Source of the DNA: Candidatus Woesearchaeota archaeon
GTDB lineage: Archaea; Nanobdellota; Nanobdellia; Woesearchaeales; DSVV01
NCBI GenBank assembly: GCA_018661705.1
Contig: JABJHR010000015.1
Coordinates: 3,525-67,524 of the forward strand
Direction: 5' to 3'
Length of the DNA: 64,000 nucleotides
The notes under the pieces are model-generated. The model worked only from the letters and a program-made list of their open reading frames with translations. It made no database searches and was not told the origin of the DNA. How positions within the stretch are numbered: position 1 is the first letter of the stretch; each line of letters starts with the position of its first letter. The translations under genes were made by a program, and so were the position numbers. Of this stretch, positions 271 to 57,339 are shown in pieces.

Positions 271-1044
271 ATGCCAAATATATACGTTGTTTATTATAAA
301 CCAAGTGATAAGGAAGAGAGATTATCATTAAAGACAGTTCTTACTACATTAGATAAATATAATATGAAATACAAGGCTATTGAGAGAAAGTTTTGTTATA
401 AAGGTGAATTTAGGGGGGCAAAGTTAATTATTGTTGTTGGTGGTGATGGAACATTCTTAAGAGTTTCACATTATGTAAAAGATGCACCTTTATTTGGAGT
501 AAATTCTCATCATATGAAAAAAGAAGGCTTTTTTATGCATTCTACAAGAATGAATTTTGAAAAAAAGATTAAAAAATTAATAAAAGGGTTTAAAACAAAA
601 AAATTAACTAGATTAGAGGTTGCGATTAACGGAAAAAAACATAATTATCCTGTGTTAAATGATATCTTTTTTGGTCATCGTATTTCATATAAATTATCAC
701 GGTTTGATTTAACAGTAAAAGGGAAGAAAGAACATCAGAAATGTTCAGGACTAATAGCTTCAACACCTGCTGGAAGTTATGCATGGGCTGTAAGTGCAGG
801 TGGTAAAAAAATGCCATTAACATCACAAAAATGGCAATATCTTGTGAGAGAGCAATATGAATTACGATTACATAAGCATAAATTAAAAAAAGGATTTCTT
901 AATAAGAATGATAAGATCAAAATTAACGTTTTAAGAGATACATATGTTCTTGCTTTGGATTCATTGGAAGAGATTAAATTAAAAAAAGGAGATGTTATTA
1001 CAATCTCTATGTCAAAAAAACCATTAAATTATGTTGTGATATAA
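271..1044 (+). CDS. nadK: NAD(+) kinase
   Basis: GGDGTFL motif (VVGGDGTFLR), NDIFF motif, and a size of about 257 aa typical of the archaeal PpnK/NadK family. Confidence 0.8.
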   Translation: MPNIYVVYYKPSDKEERLSLKTVLTTLDKYNMKYKAIERKFCYKGEFRGAKLIIVVGGDGTFLRVSHYVKDAPLFGVNSHHMKKEGFFMHSTRMNFEKKIKKLIKGFKTKKLTRLEVAINGKKHNYPVLNDIFFGHRISYKLSRFDLTVKGKKEHQKCSGLIASTPAGSYAWAVSAGGKKMPLTSQKWQYLVREQYELRLHKHKLKKGFLNKNDKIKINVLRDTYVLALDSLEEIKLKKGDVITISMSKKPLNYVVI

Positions 1045-1677
1045 ATGGAAACTAAAGAAAAATTACATAAATTAAGAAATATTGGGTTTTATTTTATTAC
1101 TGATTCAAACTTAACAAAACTAAGTTCTATAAAACAAGTTGAAATTGCTATTAAAGAAGGTGTTGAAGTTATCCAATACAGAGAAAAATTTCTTGATAGG
1201 AGACAAATGCATGAAACAGCTGTAAAAATAAGAAAAATGACATCTGAAGCAGGTATTTTGTTTATTGTAAATGATTATGTGGATGTTGCAATTAAAGCAA
1301 AAGCAGATGGTGTGCATCTTGGTCAAAATGATTTTGCATTTGAAGAAGCAAGACGAATTGTTCCAGAGGAAATGATGATTGGATTAACTGTTTCAACAGT
1401 AAAACAAGCAATTGAAGCTGAAAAGAAAGGCGCAGATTATATTGCCTTTGGGCCAATTTTTAAGGCTTTAAATCCTAAAAATAAAATTTTAGGTGTTGAT
1501 AAAATTGTTAAGGTTAAAGAAAAAATAGATATTCCAGTTGTTGTGTTTGGTGGTGTTAATAAAAATAATGTTAAAAAAGTTATTGATGTAGAAACAGATG
1601 GTTATATTATTGTTTCTGAGCTATTTTCTAAAAAAGACTTAAATAAAGAAATTAAAGAAGTAATTAAAAAAAAGTAG
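1045..1677 (+). CDS. thiE: Thiamine-phosphate synthase
   Basis: FYFITD, IQYREK, ADGVHLGQND, GADYIAFGPIF and PVVVFGGV motifs match the TMP-TENI fold. The ATG directly abuts the nadK stop. Confidence 0.8.
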   Translation: METKEKLHKLRNIGFYFITDSNLTKLSSIKQVEIAIKEGVEVIQYREKFLDRRQMHETAVKIRKMTSEAGILFIVNDYVDVAIKAKADGVHLGQNDFAFEEARRIVPEEMMIGLTVSTVKQAIEAEKKGADYIAFGPIFKALNPKNKILGVDKIVKVKEKIDIPVVVFGGVNKNNVKKVIDVETDGYIIVSELFSKKDLNKEIKEVIKKK

Positions 1678-1930
1678 GCAGGCATGCCCAATAATGGCCA
1701 TATAAATCAGCTCAAGGTTTAATCCCTGTCCATTCTCCATCTGGCGACCTTGCAAGCACCTGTGCAAAAGCTTAATGCTGCTCCGATCAAGGCCTGACAT
1801 GGTTCGCAAAAGCATAAGTCCTGCAAGACCAAATTTCATTGGCAAGACAAGGACCTTGTGCTAAAATATATGACGCTTACCAGGCTTCAGCTCCTACATA
1901 AGTCCGTTGTAGGTAACAGGTGAGGACTAA
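1678..1930. ncRNA. GC-rich island, candidate structured ncRNA (possibly SRP/7S-like). Strand and identity unresolved
   Basis: About 250 nt with sharply elevated G+C relative to the flanks. Multiple local hairpins, for example CCTACAtaagtccgtTGTAGG. The minus strand carries GUCAGGCC...GGAGCAGCA, reminiscent of the SRP RNA helix-8 motif. It shares a GTCCGT word with repeat families A and B. Confidence 0.3.
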
Positions 1931-2028
1931 CCACCCAGCCTAGCCTACCTAAGTACTTGGAAGAAAGATTGATTTAAAAAGGTTGTGATGATAACTGCTA
2001 TTTCGTAAGATTTTTATATTAGATAAAT

Positions 2029-4876: not shown

Positions 4877-4908
4877 TTTGTGGTTTATTTTTTTAATTTA
4901 ACACTTTA

Positions 4909-4998
4909 GCAAAAAATAATAACATGGCCAGATGAGGCGAAGCCGAGTAGGACTTTCATAGAAAGTCCGTCTGTGCCGGTGTTGTTATTGTTTTTTGC
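4909..4998 (+). repeat. Family A GC-rich palindromic intergenic repeat, copy A1
   Basis: Core GGCCAGatgaGGCGAAGCCGAGTAGGACTTTCatagAAAGTCCGTCTGTGCC. It is flanked by the inverted A/T arms gcaaaaaataataac and gttattgttttttgc. It is shared with the copies near 13996, 28489 and 57221. Confidence 0.6.
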
Positions 4999-6690: not shown

Positions 6691-6814
6691 TTTGTGCTTT
6701 TATTTTTTAATAATAAATATTTGTGAGAAACATTGGCTCCGCCCTGGTGTAGAAGAATTATACACTGTGTGTTACTCTGCTAAATTAGGTCCGTTAGGAC
6801 ATATCATTCACTAA
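6691..6814. repeat. Family B GC-rich intergenic repeat, copy B1 (between convergent genes)
   Basis: TTTGTGCTTTT...CATTGGCTCCGCCCTGGTGTAGAAGAATTATACACTG...AGGTCCGTTAGGACATATCA. It is nearly identical in layout to the copy at 18728-18836. Confidence 0.5.
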
Positions 6815-13894: not shown

Positions 13895-13995
13895 CTTTTT
13901 GTTTATGATCTTTTTCTATTCTTTTGTGTTTATATATCTTATGGAATAAAGAGATTTGTTTGAATTTTTTTATCTTTTTGTATATGGTGTATACG

Positions 13996-14094
13996 AAAAA
14001 AATAACAACAACCTTGGCACAGACAGACATTTTTTCGCTTTGCTCAAAAATATCCTACTCGGTTTCACCTCGCCTGGCCTTATTGTTATTTCTC
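13996..14094 (-). repeat. Family A GC-rich palindromic intergenic repeat, copy A4 (minus orientation)
   Basis: Reverse complement reads GGCCAGGCGAGGTGAAACCGAGTAGGATATTTTTGAGCAAAGCGAAAAAATGTCTGTCTGTGCC, with A-rich and T-rich inverted flanks. It abuts the stop of the 14086..14874 gene. Confidence 0.55.
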
Positions 14095-18727: not shown

Positions 18728-18836
18728 TTTTGTGCTTTTTCATGAGTGACATTGGCTTCGCCCTGGTGTTGAAAAGTATTACACTGCATGTTATGCTACA
18801 ACACTAGGTCCGTTAGGACATGTCACTCACTAAGAC
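18728..18836. repeat. Family B GC-rich intergenic repeat, copy B2 (between convergent genes)
   Basis: TTTGTGCTTTTtcatGAGTGACATTGGCTTCGCCCTGGTGTTGAAAAGTATTACACTG...AGGTCCGTTAGGACATGTCACTCAC. The terminal GAGTGACAT/ATGTCACTC 9-bp stem is specific to this copy. Confidence 0.5.
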
Positions 18837-28478: not shown

Positions 28479-28488
28479 TTTTTTTAAT

Positions 28489-28571
28489 ACAAAAAACAAT
28501 AAAGGCCAGGCGAAGCGAAGCTGAGTAGGACTTTTGAAAAAAGTCCGTCTGTGCCATTATTGTTGTTTTTT
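28489..28571 (+). repeat. Family A GC-rich palindromic intergenic repeat, copy A2
   Basis: caaaaaacaataaa|GGCCAGGCGAAGCGAAGCTGAGTAGGACTTTTGaaaAAAGTCCGTCTGTGCC|attattgttgttttttg. Confidence 0.6.
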
Positions 28572-28695
28572 GTTATTCTACTGTATTCTGAAAATAAACA
28601 TTAGGTCCAAAGGACGTGTTTCCCGTGATTTTTTTCTTTCTAATTATAATAAAATCATCAAAACATTTAAATAACTAATAACAAATAAACAACTT

Positions 28696-44858: not shown

Positions 44859-47333
44859 ATGTTTAAAAAGGGTGTTAACATGGAAGGAACTGTTGGAGAA
44901 ATATTACATATTAAAAAAAGAGACGGAGATTTAATGAATTTTGATCTTTCAAAGATTGCTGCTGCTATTTTTAGGGCAGCTAAAGAAGTTGGCGGTACAG
45001 ATCCAACGTTAGCAGATGAACTTGCAAAGGAAGTTTATTCTCATCTTAAAACAAAGGGGTTTCCAAATAATGCTCCTACAGTAGAAGAAATTCAGGATTC
45101 TATAGAAAAAGTTTTAATTGAAAAAGGGCATGCTCAAACTGCAAAAGCATTTATTCTTTATAGAGTTAAAAGGAAAAAACTTAGAGACGCAAAAACAGCA
45201 ATTGGTGTTAAAGATGATATCAAAATGACACTAAATGCCGTAAAAGTTCTAGAACGAAGATATTTACTTAAGGATAAGGATGGTAGAGTTATTGAAACTT
45301 GTGGTCAAATGTTTAGAAGGGTTGCTAGTTTTATTGCAGAAGCTGATAGAAATTATGGAGCGTCAGAAGAAAATGTAAAAGCTTGTGAAGGAGAATTTTA
45401 TGATTTAATGACAAAACTTGAGTTTTTACCAAATAGTCCTACATTTACTGGTGCAAATACTAAAGTTGGGCAATTAAGCGCTTGTTTTGTATTACCTATT
45501 GGGGATTCAATGGAAGAAATCTTTGAAGCAATTAAACAAACTGCATTAATTCACAAAAGTGGTGGTGGTACAGGATTTAGTTTTTCTCGTCTAAGACCTC
45601 ATAATGATCGTGTTTTATCTACAAAAGGGGTGGCATCTGGTCCTGTATCTTTTATGGCTGTGTTTGATGCTGCAACAGAAACAGTAAAACAAGGTGGTAC
45701 AAGAAGAGGAGCAAACATGGGGATCTTGAGAATTGATCATCCAGACATAATGGATTTTATTACAGCAAAAGAAAAAACAAATAGATTAAACAATTTTAAT
45801 ATTTCTATTGCCATTACAGATAAATTCATGGATGCTTTAGAAAAAGATGAAGAATATGAGTTGTTAAGTCCTAGAGATCAAACTGTGATAGATAAACTTA
45901 AAGCAAAAAATGTGTTTGAATTAATTGTAACTAAGGCTTGGGAAAATGGAGAACCAGGGATTATTTTTATTGATAAAATAAACAAATATAATCCTACTCC
46001 AGAAGTTGCTGAGATTGAAAGTACAAATCCTTGTGGAGAACAACCATTATTGCCTTTTGAGTCTTGTAATTTAGGTTCTATTAACCTTTCTACTACTCTT
46101 AAAGAAGAGAATGGAGAAACAAAAGTAGATTATGATAAACTTAAAAGAATTATTTATTCTGCAGTACATTTTCTTGATAATGTAATTGATATGAATAAAT
46201 TTCCTTTACTTCAAATTGAAGAAATGACTAGAGCTAATAGAAAAATAGGTCTTGGTGTTATGGGATTTGCTAACATGTTGTTAAGGTTGGGTGTTCGTTA
46301 TAATTCTGATGAAGGAATTAAAATTGCAGAAGAAGTTATGGGATTTGTTGATAGAGAATCAAAAAAAGCATCTCAGGAATTAGCTAAGAAAAGAGGGCCT
46401 TTCCCAAATTATAGTAAAAGTATTTACAAAGATGGGGAATTAATGAGAAATGCAACTACAACAACAATTGCTCCAACAGGGACATTAAGTATTCTTGCTA
46501 ATTGTTCTAGTGGTGTTGAACCATTATTTGCAATTTCTTACATTAGAAATATTATGGATAATACTGAACTTGTTGAAACAAACCCGGTGTTTTTAGATGT
46601 TGCAAAGAAAGAAGGTTTTTATTCTGAAGAATTACTAAAAAAAGTGGCAATGCAAGGTAGTATTCAAAATATGGAAGAAATTCCTGAAGAAATTAGAAAG
46701 CCGTTTGTAATTTCACACGACATTTCACCTGTTTGGCACACTAGGATGCAAGCTGCTTTCCAAAAGCATGTTGATAATGCAGTTTCAAAAACAGTTAATT
46801 TCCCAAATTCTGCAACAATTGAAGAAGTAAGAGAAGTTTATTTATTAGCTTACAAACTTGGTTGTAAAGGAGTAACTGTTTATAGGGATGGTAGTAGAGA
46901 TGAACAAGTTTTGAATATTGGTGTTGTTAATAAAGGAGATAAATCTAACCCTGTTGTTAAAGAAATAACTCCGGAAGTTATTCCAACTATAATACAAGAA
47001 ACAACAAATGATACTAGTGAAGTTAAAGAAGCAACAATTGATCCGACAGTTTCAAATGATCCTAACATTGTTGCAAATCTTCAAGCACAATCAACAGGAA
47101 ATGTCATTGATTCAAACATAACAGATTCAAATGTAATTCCTCCAACTGTAAATGTTTCAAACATAACAGCTAGTTCGGTAGCGGTTGATGCAACTAAAGA
47201 AGCTATTCTTAAGGCACAAGAAGCATTGCCAGACAAGAAAAAAATATACTGTCCAGAATGCAATGAAAAACTTACACAACAAGAAGGGTGTGTGATTTGT
47301 CCTAATTGTAGTTTTTCAGCCTGTCATATGTGA
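44859..47333 (+). CDS. nrdJ: Class II (adenosylcobalamin-dependent) ribonucleotide reductase NrdJ, with C-terminal low-complexity linker and zinc ribbon
   Basis: ATP cone (KRDGDLMNFDLSKI), catalytic-site Cys/Asn/Glu region (NPCGEQPLLPFESCNLGSINL), and C-terminal CPECN...CVICPNC. The probable true start is Met8 (44880). Confidence 0.85.
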   Translation: MFKKGVNMEGTVGEILHIKKRDGDLMNFDLSKIAAAIFRAAKEVGGTDPTLADELAKEVYSHLKTKGFPNNAPTVEEIQDSIEKVLIEKGHAQTAKAFILYRVKRKKLRDAKTAIGVKDDIKMTLNAVKVLERRYLLKDKDGRVIETCGQMFRRVASFIAEADRNYGASEENVKACEGEFYDLMTKLEFLPNSPTFTGANTKVGQLSACFVLPIGDSMEEIFEAIKQTALIHKSGGGTGFSFSRLRPHNDRVLSTKGVASGPVSFMAVFDAATETVKQGGTRRGANMGILRIDHPDIMDFITAKEKTNRLNNFNISIAITDKFMDALEKDEEYELLSPRDQTVIDKLKAKNVFELIVTKAWENGEPGIIFIDKINKYNPTPEVAEIESTNPCGEQPLLPFESCNLGSINLSTTLKEENGETKVDYDKLKRIIYSAVHFLDNVIDMNKFPLLQIEEMTRANRKIGLGVMGFANMLLRLGVRYNSDEGIKIAEEVMGFVDRESKKASQELAKKRGPFPNYSKSIYKDGELMRNATTTTIAPTGTLSILANCSSGVEPLFAISYIRNIMDNTELVETNPVFLDVAKKEGFYSEELLKKVAMQGSIQNMEEIPEEIRKPFVISHDISPVWHTRMQAAFQKHVDNAVSKTVNFPNSATIEEVREVYLLAYKLGCKGVTVYRDGSRDEQVLNIGVVNKGDKSNPVVKEITPEVIPTIIQETTNDTSEVKEATIDPTVSNDPNIVANLQAQSTGNVIDSNITDSNVIPPTVNVSNITASSVAVDATKEAILKAQEALPDKKKIYCPECNEKLTQQEGCVICPNCSFSACHM

Positions 47334-48256: not shown

Positions 48257-50350
48257 ATGCCTGTTTTAAAGGTTAGTAAAAGAGACGGAAGCCTAGTTGT
48301 TTTTAATAAAGAAAAAATATCTGGTGCTATTTTCAATGCAGCGTATGCAGTAGGAGGCTCTGATAAAGATAGGGCTGATCACCTAGCAGATATTGTTGTT
48401 AAGAAAGTTAATGAAAAATATGGGGATGAAGTTCCAACGGTAGAAGATATTCAAGATTTAGTTGAAAGAGTTTTAATTGAAGAACATCATATTAAAACTG
48501 CTAAAGCATATATCCTATATCGTGAAAAAAAGACAAGATTAAGAGAACTAAAAAAATCCTTGGTTGGAACTTTTGTAGCTAAGAAACTTAGTTATAATGC
48601 ATTAAAAATATTGAAAGAAAGATATTTGATGAAGGATGAAAATGGAGCAATTGCTGAAACCCCTTTGGGTATGTTTCGTAGAGTAGCACATAATGTTGCA
48701 AAAGCAGATAAGATTTATAACGATTTTGATCCAAAAAAATCAGAAGAGATTTTTAATGAAGCAATGGATAATCTTTATTTCTTACCAAATTCTCCTACCT
48801 TAATGAATGCAGGAACACAAATGCAACAACTTAGTGCATGTTTTGTTCTTCCAATTGAAGATTCTATTGAGAGTATTTACATGGCACTGAGAAATGCTGC
48901 CATTATCCATCAAAGTGGTGGTGGAACAGGATTTAGTTTTTCTGGTTTAAGACCAAAAGGAGACATTATTGGTTCAACAAGAGGACCTAGTTCTGGGCCA
49001 AAATCCTTTATTGAATTGTTTGATAAGTCAACAGAAATAATAAAAAAAGGTGGTAGAAGAAGGGGCGCAAATATGGGTGTTCTTAGAGTTGATCATCCTG
49101 ATGTTTTAGATTTTATCAATGCAAAAGAAAATACAGAAGTATTAACAAATTTTAATCTTTCAGTTGGATTAACAAGTAAATTTATTCAGGCACTAAAGAG
49201 AGATAACATGTATGATCTTATTAACCCTAAAACGGGAGAGGTAGTTCGTAAATTACCTGCGAGGGAAGTTTTTGATTTAATTGCAACCATGGCTTGGAAA
49301 AATGGTGAACCAGGAATACTTTTCTTAGATACTATTAATAAAGAAAATCCCTTGGCAAGTTTGGGAGAGATAAAAACAACAAATCCTTGTGGAGAAGTTC
49401 CTTTGTTACCCTATGAATCATGTAATTTAGGATCTATTAACTTATATCACATGGTTGAAGGAAAAGAAGTTGATTATGAAAAGCTAAGAAAAACAGTTTG
49501 GTTAGCGATACATTTTCTTGATAATGTTATTGAAATGAATAAATACCCACTTAAAGAAATTGAAACTATTACTAAAGCAAATAGGAAGATTGGGCTTGGT
49601 GTAATGGGTTTTTCAGATATGCTTTATAGGTTAGGAATTAAATATGATAGCGAGGAGGGTTTAAAGTTTGCTGAAAAATTAATTGGATTTATTTATGAAG
49701 AAGCAAAAAAAGCATCAATAGAACTTGCAAAGCGAAGAGGAGTTTTTACAAATTGGAAAAAAAGTAAATATGTCGAAGAAGGAATTAAACTAAGAAATGG
49801 AACACTTCTTTCAATTGCACCAACCGGAACATTAAGTATGATTGCAGATTGTAGTGGTAGTATTGAACCAAATTTTGCCTTGTCTTACATTAAACGAGTT
49901 ATGGGTGGAGAAGAATTTTTATTTGTGAACAAACATTTTGCAGATGTTGCCAGAGAAAGAGGATTTTATTCAGAGGAATTAATGAAAAAAATTGCAAATA
50001 AAGGATCAATACAAAGTTTTAGGGAAATTCCTAAAGATGTTAGAGATGTTTTTGTTACTAGTCACGATATTTCTGCAGAATATCATGTTAGAATGCAGGC
50101 TGCATTTCAGAAACATGTTGATAATGCAGTTTCTAAAAGTGTAAATCTAAGATATACTGCACAAAAAGACGATATGGCTAACATTTTTAAATTAGCACAT
50201 GAGTTGGGTTGTAAAGGAATTACTGTATATAGGGATGGTAGTAGAGATAATCAAGTTTTGAATGTTGAGTATGATAAAAATTTATCACAAAAGCAAGAAA
50301 GAAGAATTGTTAAAAAACGTAGAGTTCCTAATAAATGTGAAACTTGTTGA
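48257..50350 (+). CDS. nrdJ: Class II (adenosylcobalamin-dependent) ribonucleotide reductase NrdJ, second paralog
   Basis: ATP cone (SKRDGSLVVFNKEKI), NPCGEVPLLPYESCNLGSINL, and a C-terminal CETC tail. It is colinear with the upstream nrdJ. Confidence 0.85.
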   Translation: MPVLKVSKRDGSLVVFNKEKISGAIFNAAYAVGGSDKDRADHLADIVVKKVNEKYGDEVPTVEDIQDLVERVLIEEHHIKTAKAYILYREKKTRLRELKKSLVGTFVAKKLSYNALKILKERYLMKDENGAIAETPLGMFRRVAHNVAKADKIYNDFDPKKSEEIFNEAMDNLYFLPNSPTLMNAGTQMQQLSACFVLPIEDSIESIYMALRNAAIIHQSGGGTGFSFSGLRPKGDIIGSTRGPSSGPKSFIELFDKSTEIIKKGGRRRGANMGVLRVDHPDVLDFINAKENTEVLTNFNLSVGLTSKFIQALKRDNMYDLINPKTGEVVRKLPAREVFDLIATMAWKNGEPGILFLDTINKENPLASLGEIKTTNPCGEVPLLPYESCNLGSINLYHMVEGKEVDYEKLRKTVWLAIHFLDNVIEMNKYPLKEIETITKANRKIGLGVMGFSDMLYRLGIKYDSEEGLKFAEKLIGFIYEEAKKASIELAKRRGVFTNWKKSKYVEEGIKLRNGTLLSIAPTGTLSMIADCSGSIEPNFALSYIKRVMGGEEFLFVNKHFADVARERGFYSEELMKKIANKGSIQSFREIPKDVRDVFVTSHDISAEYHVRMQAAFQKHVDNAVSKSVNLRYTAQKDDMANIFKLAHELGCKGITVYRDGSRDNQVLNVEYDKNLSQKQERRIVKKRRVPNKCETC

Positions 50351-51034: not shown

Positions 51035-51778
51035 ATGGGATTTTTGAATAATATCATTGGAAAACCTTCAGGGCCTGGAGAACCTGCGCCAGCAACAAAA
51101 GTAGAAATGAAAGGCCCACCTACTGACAGAGTCATTGCAATGAGACAGCATGGCTTAAGTAATAATCAAATTATTCAGGCACTTCAAAATGAAGGCCATA
51201 ATTCAACTGAGATTTTGGATGCAATAAATCAAGCTGATTTAAAAGGAGGTGTTGAAATGTCACCAAATCAATCAGGACAACCTGTACCAGCACAAATGCC
51301 GGGACAACCGTCACAACCACCACAACAACCACCAGGAGCTTCTCCTGCGCAAGGCCCAGGACCAATGAGTCCACCAGGACAGCCTTTACCGCCAGGATTT
51401 GGTTCGCCTGCACCAGCAATGGGACAGGAAGCTAGAGAAGAGGGTCCAGCACTAGAAAGAATTGAAGAACTAGCAGAAGCTATTATTGATGAAAAGTGGA
51501 ATGAGATTGTCAAGAGCATTAATAAAATTGCTGAGTGGAAAGAACGGACAGATGCAAAAATTACTCAAATGGAACAAAAGTTTGAGGATTTAAAGCATAA
51601 TTTTGATACTTTACACAAAGGTGTCTTAGGGAAAATAGGAGACTATGACAGTACATTAACAAATATCAGTTCAGAAATTAAGGCAATGGATAAAGTGTTT
51701 CAAAAAGTATTGCCTGTTATGACAGAAAATGTTAATGAGCTTAGTAGGATAACACAAGACATGAAGAAAAAAGCTTAA
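51035..51778 (+). CDS. Hypothetical protein with small helical N-domain, P/Q-rich linker and C-terminal coiled coil
   Basis: A P/Q/G-rich linker (QPVPAQMPGQPSQPPQQPPGASPAQGPGPMSPPGQP) sits between an N-terminal module of about 70 aa and a helical region of about 110 aa. Confidence 0.4.
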   Translation: MGFLNNIIGKPSGPGEPAPATKVEMKGPPTDRVIAMRQHGLSNNQIIQALQNEGHNSTEILDAINQADLKGGVEMSPNQSGQPVPAQMPGQPSQPPQQPPGASPAQGPGPMSPPGQPLPPGFGSPAPAMGQEAREEGPALERIEELAEAIIDEKWNEIVKSINKIAEWKERTDAKITQMEQKFEDLKHNFDTLHKGVLGKIGDYDSTLTNISSEIKAMDKVFQKVLPVMTENVNELSRITQDMKKKA

Positions 51779-57220: not shown

Positions 57221-57310
57221 CAAAATAACATCATGGCCAGGCGAGCCGTTAGGCGAGTAGGATATTTGCGTAGCAAATTTCCGTCTGTGCCGTTATTGTT
57301 GTTATTTTGT
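57221..57310 (+). repeat. Family A GC-rich palindromic intergenic repeat, copy A3
   Basis: acaaaataacatca|GGCCAGGCGAGCCGTTAGGCGAGTAGGATATTTGCgtaGCAAATTTCCGTCTGTGCC|gttattgttgttattttgt. Compensatory changes occur in the inner stem relative to A1 and A2. Confidence 0.6.
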
Positions 57311-57339
57311 ATGTCTATTACTAGTAATAATTAACAAAT

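Follow-up and report, generated by a model that had tools for sequence, protein, structure and literature searches.

In archaeal SRP RNA, helix 6 is normally the helix to which SRP19 binds. RNAs of this class (Rfam family RF01857; for example, those of Methanocaldococcus jannaschii and Archaeoglobus fulgidus) are about 300–320 nt long. Their ends are closed by helix 1, their Alu domain is built from helices 2–4 with a UGUNR motif and base pairs between loops L2 and L1.2, and a long helix 5 connects this domain with helix 8 and its asymmetric and symmetric loops. In a 2010 survey, SRP19 and helix 6 co-occurred in every archaeal group surveyed, and only GRRA loops were recorded at the tip of helix 8 (PMC2905702). 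The large bacterial SRP RNA (Bacillus subtilis type, RF01854) also has an Alu domain, joined to an unbranched helix 5–helix 8 rod without helix 6, and an SRP54 homologue is alone in its S domain. Bacterial 4.5S-type RNAs (RF00169) have no Alu domain, no helix 1 and little of helix 5. The apical loop of bacterial SRP RNAs can depart from GNRA: URRC is termed a "widespread alternative", and URRU is a less frequent one (PMC4091067).

The stretch of DNA analysed here (the window) is 64,000 nt long, and the original prediction had placed a structured non-coding RNA in a GC-rich island at positions 1678–1930, naming SRP/7S RNA on the minus strand as its first candidate. When all 64 kb were scanned with the covariance models of Rfam 15 at their gathering thresholds, there was a sole match, RF01857 (Archaea_SRP), at 1676–1950 on the minus strand. 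This 275 nt match scores 133 bits (E 4.2e-30) and covers positions 1–317 of the 317 in the model; it passes the curated gathering score for archaeal SRP RNA (96.5 bits) over the full model and spans both the Alu and the S domains. The covariance check proposed with the prediction thus upheld its first candidate and the location of the island, although the feature is slightly longer than had been drawn.

The window RNA is colinear with archaeal SRP RNA over its full length. It has the same end closure by helix 1, Alu helices 2–4, UGUNR motif, L2/L1.2 pairs, long helix 5 and two helix 8 loops, and it is preceded by an archaeal promoter. It differs in its shorter length, in the absence of helix 6 and hence of the adenosine clamp and the primary SRP19 site, and in its apical loop, which is UGAU on a U·C closing position rather than the GRRA of all archaeal groups surveyed in 2010 (PMC2905702). 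The combination of an Alu domain with an unbranched helix 5–helix 8 rod recalls the large bacterial RNA, as would an S domain occupied by SRP54 alone, and URRC or URRU loops are found in some bacteria (PMC4091067). Unlike the bacterial large SRP RNA, it scores as archaeal, has an archaeal Alu 5′ sequence and a TATA promoter, and lies in a fibrillarin/Nop neighbourhood; there is also no evidence here for an Alu partner resembling the HBsu of the B. subtilis type. We consider the minus strand of 1676–1950 very probably to be the SRP RNA gene of a Woesearchaeota-like DPANN archaeon. The island is an ordinary universal housekeeping RNA gene, but an under-described structural variant in which helix 6 is absent and the apical loop is of the URRY type. 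Its parts are given below, position p of the RNA corresponding to window position 1951 − p.

1676–1950, minus strand: SRP (7S) RNA gene, 275 nt (RF01857 match; gapless 275-nt alignment with three relatives, 94% of cells paired)
1943–1950 (RNA 1–8), minus strand: 5′ strand of helix 1, paired with 1676–1683 (RNA 268–275) in the Rfam alignment
1888–1941 (RNA 10–63), minus strand: Alu 5′ domain, with helices 2, 3 and 4, loops L2 and L1.2 and the UGUNR motif
RNA 11–14 with 59–62: helix 2
RNA 15–20 with 28–33: helix 3, with loop L2 UUAGUCC
RNA 33–37: UGUNR motif, UGUUA
RNA 38–43 with 53–58: helix 4, with loop L1.2 ACGGACUUA
1806–1885 (RNA 66–145), minus strand: helix 5, 5′ strand
1686–1771 (RNA 180–265), minus strand: helix 5, 3′ strand
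1772–1805 (RNA 146–179), minus strand: helix 8, predicted SRP54 M-domain site (aligned to the Rfam helix 8 consensus; binding expected from established SRP structures)
1785–1790, minus strand: apical loop U-UGAU-C, a URRU tetraloop with a U·C closing position, in place of GNRA
1808–1811 (RNA 140–143), minus strand: UUUU facing UUUU at 1766–1769 (RNA 182–185), a tandem U·U tract where helix 6 would branch

The G+C content is 47.6% for 1676–1950 and 46.2% for 1678–1930, against 29.9% for the whole window, and the best 250-nt frame of the island (1696–1945, G+C 0.476) exceeds the all-frame mean by about 4.6 SD. The GC excess noted in the original prediction is therefore real, but it ranks second in the window and not first as had been stated. 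That rank belongs to 51230–51479 (0.512), which matches no RNA family and lies inside an ORF (51035–51778), in a Pro/Gln/Gly-rich low-complexity linker; as this peak is coding, the island retains the strongest non-coding GC excess. The statement that the island holds no ORF also needs amendment, since a mechanical 68-aa ORF with a TTG start overlaps it at 1639–1845 on the minus strand, though nothing supports this ORF as a gene. ARAGORN found no tRNA gene in the 64-kb window.

The fallback readings of the island were a cluster of degenerate copies of repeat families, called A and B, or a different housekeeping RNA, for instance that of RNase P. A repeat origin was suggested by a word reported twice on the plus strand, AUAAGUCCG, and the word AAGTCCG(T) is indeed common to the island and to a repeat family at 4905–4996 and 28483–28574. 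Within the island, only the 8-mer ATAAGTCC recurs (at 1814 and 1898), with a G following the second copy only. The plus-strand word AUAAGUCC reads GGACUUAU on the RNA strand, where one copy forms part of loop L1.2 and the other part of the 5′ strand of helix 5. Comparison of the island with the rest of the window by blastn gave at best a 14-nt word (E 0.05), and the repeat elements matched over 7–10 nt; the common word AAGTCCGT is 8 nt (E 1.3). The repeat search linked the island only to an A-rich tract. Pairwise likeness to families A and B is thus limited to one common 8-mer, and neither RNase P RNA nor any other housekeeping RNA is matched in the 64-kb window at Rfam gathering thresholds. 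The Rfam scan, the repeat search and blastn-short (7–14-nt words only) refute both fallbacks, to which we assign a vanishingly small probability.

The repeats themselves deserve a brief description. An intergenic element is present at 4905–4996, at 28483–28574 and 57275–57317 (both plus strand), and in inverted orientation at 13990–14032; it is probably one of the two families, A or B. The copies at 4905–4996 and 28483–28574 fold as a three-way junction with a long AU-rich stem, a small hairpin and an 8-bp hairpin (z −5.7 and −4.0). Both hairpins carry compensatory differences between the copies, the small one being GGC-GAA-GCC in one and AGC-GAA-GCU in copy 2, and the 8-bp one changing from GGACUUUC/GAAAGUCC to GGACUUUU/AAAAGUCC. 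The element at 4905–4996 matches no Rfam family. A hammerhead ribozyme was considered for it and rejected, as the core varies in its positions from copy to copy and none of the Rfam hammerhead models gives a match. A second repeat pair, 6724–6814 and 18743–18833, is 80% identical; the copy at 18743–18833 forms a four-way, cloverleaf-like junction with a 10-bp closing stem (−38.1 kcal/mol, z −5.7), and that at 6724–6814 folds poorly (z about 0). Finally, several direct-repeat families relate 45067–46933 to 48426–50280 at 71–80% identity; the offset is about 3350 nt in each, which points to a pair of large paralogous genes in tandem.

The minus strand of the island forms many stems, as had been predicted, with an MFE fold of −102.7 kcal/mol (z −3.4). 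Transfer of the Rfam alignment to the sequence gives a comparative fold of 108 pairs, 90 of them canonical (−95.1 kcal/mol), from which the MFE fold differs in the S domain. Helix 1 has eight pairs, which are 100% paired in four relatives and include three with compensatory changes. In the Alu domain, the loops L2 and L1.2 can form the pairs G24–C49, U25–A48, C26–G47 and C27–G46 (GUCC/GGAC), the middle pair differing on both sides from the Rfam consensus GGC/GCC. Helix 8 displays the asymmetric loop GAAC(C) and the symmetric loop formed by CAGG (1793–1796) and AGCA (1779–1782), and the loop columns GAAC(C)...CAGG...AGCA are invariant in 72 DPANN sequences. The helix-8-like motif recognized earlier on this strand, GUCAGGCCUUGAUCGGAGCAGCA, maps to 1776–1798.

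The window RNA aligns without gaps over 275 nt with its relative L128 at 82% identity, and of the 90 pairs 2 are broken, 65 being unchanged, 15 retained through a change on one side and 8 compensatory. In the alignment of four 275-nt relatives (A5), 94.2% of cells are paired, compared with 35–44% in slid controls, and 18 pairs are double-changed. For the S domains of 72 DPANN sequences (A2, 142 nearly gapless columns), RNAalifold independently arrives at a single unbranched hairpin. Here 94.8% of cells are paired (38–54% when slid), 28 of 37 pairs are compensatory, double changes occur in 454 cells, and the observed values were reached by 0 of 500 shuffles. The Alu 5′ domain (A3; 62 sequences, 61 distinct) gives 91.7% paired cells against 34–51% in slid controls, and its loop–loop pairs covary, one position being CG in 47, UA in 8 and GU in 4. 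Compensatory change thus maintains each part of the fold, namely helix 1, the Alu domain with its loop–loop pairs, helix 5 and helix 8, in three close 275-nt relatives and in 72 DPANN sequences.

The surroundings of the RNA include signals and genes as follows.

1972–1980, minus strand: archaeal TATA box TTTTTAAAT, spanning −30 to −22 relative to the start of the RNA (read from the sequence; putative function)
1666–1673, minus strand: eight-T run, a candidate archaeal oligo-T terminator, starting 2 nt past the RNA 3′ end
271–1044, plus strand: NAD kinase, a flanking gene
1045–1677, plus strand: ThiE, convergent with the SRP RNA gene and overlapping its 3′ end by 2 nt
Other flanking genes: an unknown 222-aa ORF, Lgt and fibrillarin

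In DPANN relatives, CTTAAATA/TTTAAAWA boxes lie upstream of the SRP RNA start at about the same distance. The eight-T run coincides with the final codons of thiE, which is transcribed towards it, and T runs 3′ of the SRP RNA gene are also present in several DPANN relatives, including L037 and L118. With a putative promoter and terminator at its two ends, the locus resembles a transcribed gene. Its gene order is the same as in the Woesearchaeota contig L190, which reads TrmB, NAD kinase, ThiE, a gap, a 209-aa ORF, Lgt, fibrillarin and Nop, and the gap between ThiE and the 209-aa ORF holds a 275-nt Archaea_SRP match. The fibrillarin of the window has its nearest named relatives in Candidatus Woesearchaeota (68% identity); fibrillarin, Nop and the Woesearchaeota-like proteins identify the host as archaeal.

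The loss of helix 6, which the original prediction did not notice, is evident from the Rfam alignment, in which the window RNA has 3 nt where the model has 40 consecutive positions separating helix 5 from helix 8. The helix 6 hairpin with its GNAR loop, which is the SRP19 site and provides the adenosine clamp to helix 8, is not present. The canonical metagenomic archaeal SRP RNAs L176, L157 and L132 (315 nt, about 252 bits) have helix 6 at those 40 positions, in the form of an 18-bp-class hairpin with a GGAA loop, and share the Alu 5′ motif of the window RNA. With helix 6 gone, helix 5 leads directly on to helix 8 and the S domain is an unbranched rod. At the point where helix 6 would branch lies the tandem U·U tract, in which C139 is followed by UUUU (140–143) and helix 8, and on the facing strand UUUU (182–185) precedes G186, so that G–C pairs flank the tract. 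The same columns (A2 columns 52–55 with 94–97) are mostly Watson–Crick in relatives, two of four in L128 and three of four in L192, which argues that the region is helical and is no remnant of a junction. The window copy, with its four tandem U·U and the U·C closing position, is judged to be somewhat weaker than its relatives.

These departures could also be read as damage to a decaying SRP RNA pseudogene or relic, with a working gene elsewhere. Such a reading would account for the missing helix 6 and the non-canonical loop, and the four tandem U·U and the U·C closing position are not shared by the closest relatives. We consider it very unlikely, since the architecture is kept, with abundant compensatory changes, in over 70 DPANN sequences, and only 2 of 90 pairs are broken relative to the 82%-identical L128. 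The SRP54-binding nucleotides are invariant, the promoter and terminator signals are intact, and the syntenic position is occupied in L190.

The 40-position deletion is not confined to the window, as Rfam alignments place it also in L085, L118, L037, L042 (Nanohaloarchaea), L015, L190 and L192. In metagenomes, a scan for the Alu motif GCTAGGCTGGG-N13-CCTGTNACC yielded 68 loci, and a metagenome scan for near-identical S domains with the pattern AACCATGTCAGGCCTTGATCGGAGCAGCAT gave 0 matches. The spacing from the Alu motif to CAGG falls into two classes, with 29 loci in a short class (145–152 nt; the window has 148) and 14 in a long class (188–193 nt). All 18 short-class loci that were scanned with Rfam match Archaea_SRP, at 100–167 bits, and helix 6 is deleted in both of the alignments shown among them. 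To judge from these data, loss of helix 6 is common among uncultured archaea. Most of the short-spacing loci retain a GGAA loop, and a URRY loop is therefore no necessary companion of helix 6 loss. The pattern fits an order of events in which helix 6 would have been lost first and the loop changed later in sub-lineages. Three metagenome contigs (L177, L183 and L184) carry SRP RNAs of archaeal type with a GAACCGAGUCAC... stretch, followed by about 50 nt of extra sequence and a second helix-8-like motif, GAGAGGUCGGGAACGAAGCAGC; this may be an unusual helix 6/8 arrangement.

The absence of a GNRA apical loop had been remarked on in the original prediction as a possible mismatch with SRP RNA. The observation was correct, and the loop is a conserved lineage trait rather than an error. 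A GNRA (GRRA) tetraloop is not present on helix 8 of the window RNA, where the context is CC-U-UGAU-C-GG; in the closest relatives (L128, L190 and L192) it is UC-C-UGAC-G-GA, that is, the URRC loop UGAC on a 3-bp stem with a C–G closing pair. A scan for GTCAGGCCNTGANCGGAGCAGC in one genome per GTDB species gave at least 120 matches, which together with the window's own scaffold make 121 listed loci, distributed among the loop variants U..U (89), U..C (29) and C..C (3). Among the matches listed, the DPANN genomes are MAGs of Pacearchaeota, Woesearchaeota, Nanoarchaeota and Nanohaloarchaea, and the bacteria are Phycisphaerae and other Planctomycetota, Acholeplasmataceae and other Mollicutes, and Bacilli. 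In Phycisphaerae and Acholeplasmataceae, 4.5S-type RNAs carry exactly the helix 8 core of the window RNA, GUCAGGCC-UUGAUC-GGAGCAGC; they differ from it in having no Alu domain or helix 1 and lacking most of helix 5. Among the bacterial loci listed, L009, L005, L021 and about 40 more are 4.5S-type RNAs with an identical helix 8 core and a UGAU or UGAC loop. As the same core is found in Planctomycetota and Mollicutes, the URRY loop recurs in unrelated lineages.

Horizontal transfer of a bacterial-type large SRP RNA would account at once for the absence of helix 6 and for the URRY loop. In its favour, the exact helix 8 motif is found in Phycisphaerae, Acholeplasmataceae and other bacteria, URRC and URRU are known bacterial alternatives (PMC4091067), and two Pacearchaeota-type RNAs, L006 and L013, match Bacteria_large_SRP best (RF01854; 71 and 60 bits). 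When the models of the clan compete for the window RNA or for one of its close relatives, Archaea_SRP (113–133 bits) nevertheless comes out ahead of the bacterial model, and most Pacearchaeota-type RNAs score higher on the archaeal model once sub-threshold matches are shown. The window RNA also has the UGUNR motif and an archaeal-type Alu 5′ sequence, the motif of the metagenome scan, in common with canonical archaeal RNAs that bear helix 6. Furthermore, the short-spacing metagenomic loci, all archaeal where scanned, include helix-6-less intermediates with GGAA, which fit loss of helix 6 within the lineage followed by a change of the loop. We therefore regard transfer as very unlikely and favour an archaeal SRP RNA that was reduced in place.

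Without helix 6, the RNA has neither the primary SRP19 site nor the helix 6/8 adenosine clamp, and we looked for the protein partners in the window and in the loci of its relatives. No SRP19 was found by phmmer and hmmsearch (M. jannaschii and human SRP19, and a profile) in the ORFs of the window and of L001–L121, which represent a small part of any genome; a GTPase motif search of the same ORFs, with the same small coverage of each genome, found no SRP54 or FtsY. Database searches for SRP19 gave only methanogen and Archaeoglobus-type sequences among the matches listed and are uninformative on DPANN. For complete nanohaloarchaeal genomes, Ffh, FtsY and SRP RNA are listed and SRP19 is not (PMC10266531), and the nanohaloarchaeal SRP RNA L042 is one of those without helix 6. 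SRP19 is dispensable in Haloferax on the evidence of a deletion, as cited in PMC2905702. Taken together, the co-occurrence of helix 6 and SRP19, the result in Haloferax and the nanohaloarchaeal gene list suggest that SRP19 has probably been lost here, leaving a two-component particle of SRP54 and RNA.

By analogy with established SRP biology, the M domain of SRP54 would bind the symmetric and asymmetric loops of helix 8, and the particle would capture signal sequences on ribosomes engaged in translation. Docking of FtsY and activation of the GTPases would be guided by the apical loop together with the distal region of helix 5, and the Alu domain would reach the ribosomal factor site and slow elongation. 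We further propose that this particle functions with no SRP19 in the customary position.

For the window itself the outcome is a matter of routine annotation, in that the island can be labelled an SRP RNA gene. Elsewhere in DPANN this step would often fail. Typical SRP RNAs of Pacearchaeota and Woesearchaeota score 68–96 bits on Archaea_SRP, under the 96.5-bit threshold, and others are called Bacteria_large_SRP (52–71 bits) or Bacteria_small_SRP. Examples of RNAs that are below threshold or carry a bacterial label are L006, L013, L048, L002, L018, L069, L004, L072 and L096, all on Pacearchaeota or Woesearchaeota MAG contigs. Given such scores and labels, routine annotation will miss or mislabel the SRP RNA in DPANN genomes. 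In the searchable literature, coverage of which is incomplete, we found no description of an archaeal SRP RNA variant without helix 6 or with a URRY loop, the only related account being that of the bacterial URRC and URRU loops; an earlier description may exist.

We lean slightly towards a broader interpretation, in which a large part of DPANN (Woesearchaeota, Pacearchaeota, Nanohaloarchaeota and unnamed metagenomic lineages) would have reduced the S domain to the bacterial two-component form, losing helix 6 and presumably SRP19 and keeping the archaeal Alu domain, and in which sub-lineages would have exchanged the receptor-docking GNRA loop for URRY, a loop taken up separately by several bacterial phyla. 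If true, this would contradict the textbook view of helix 6 and SRP19 as constant parts of the archaeal SRP, and it would account for the many DPANN annotations in which the SRP RNA is overlooked or mislabelled. A set of uncultured archaeal lineages without helix 6, some of them also without GNRA, would then be evidence from nature that archaea can do without SRP19 and the helix 6/8 clamp, a conclusion already suggested by deletion of SRP19 in Haloferax. The recurrence of URRY in helix-6-less archaea and in unrelated bacteria offers a test case for what docking to FtsY requires of the apical loop.
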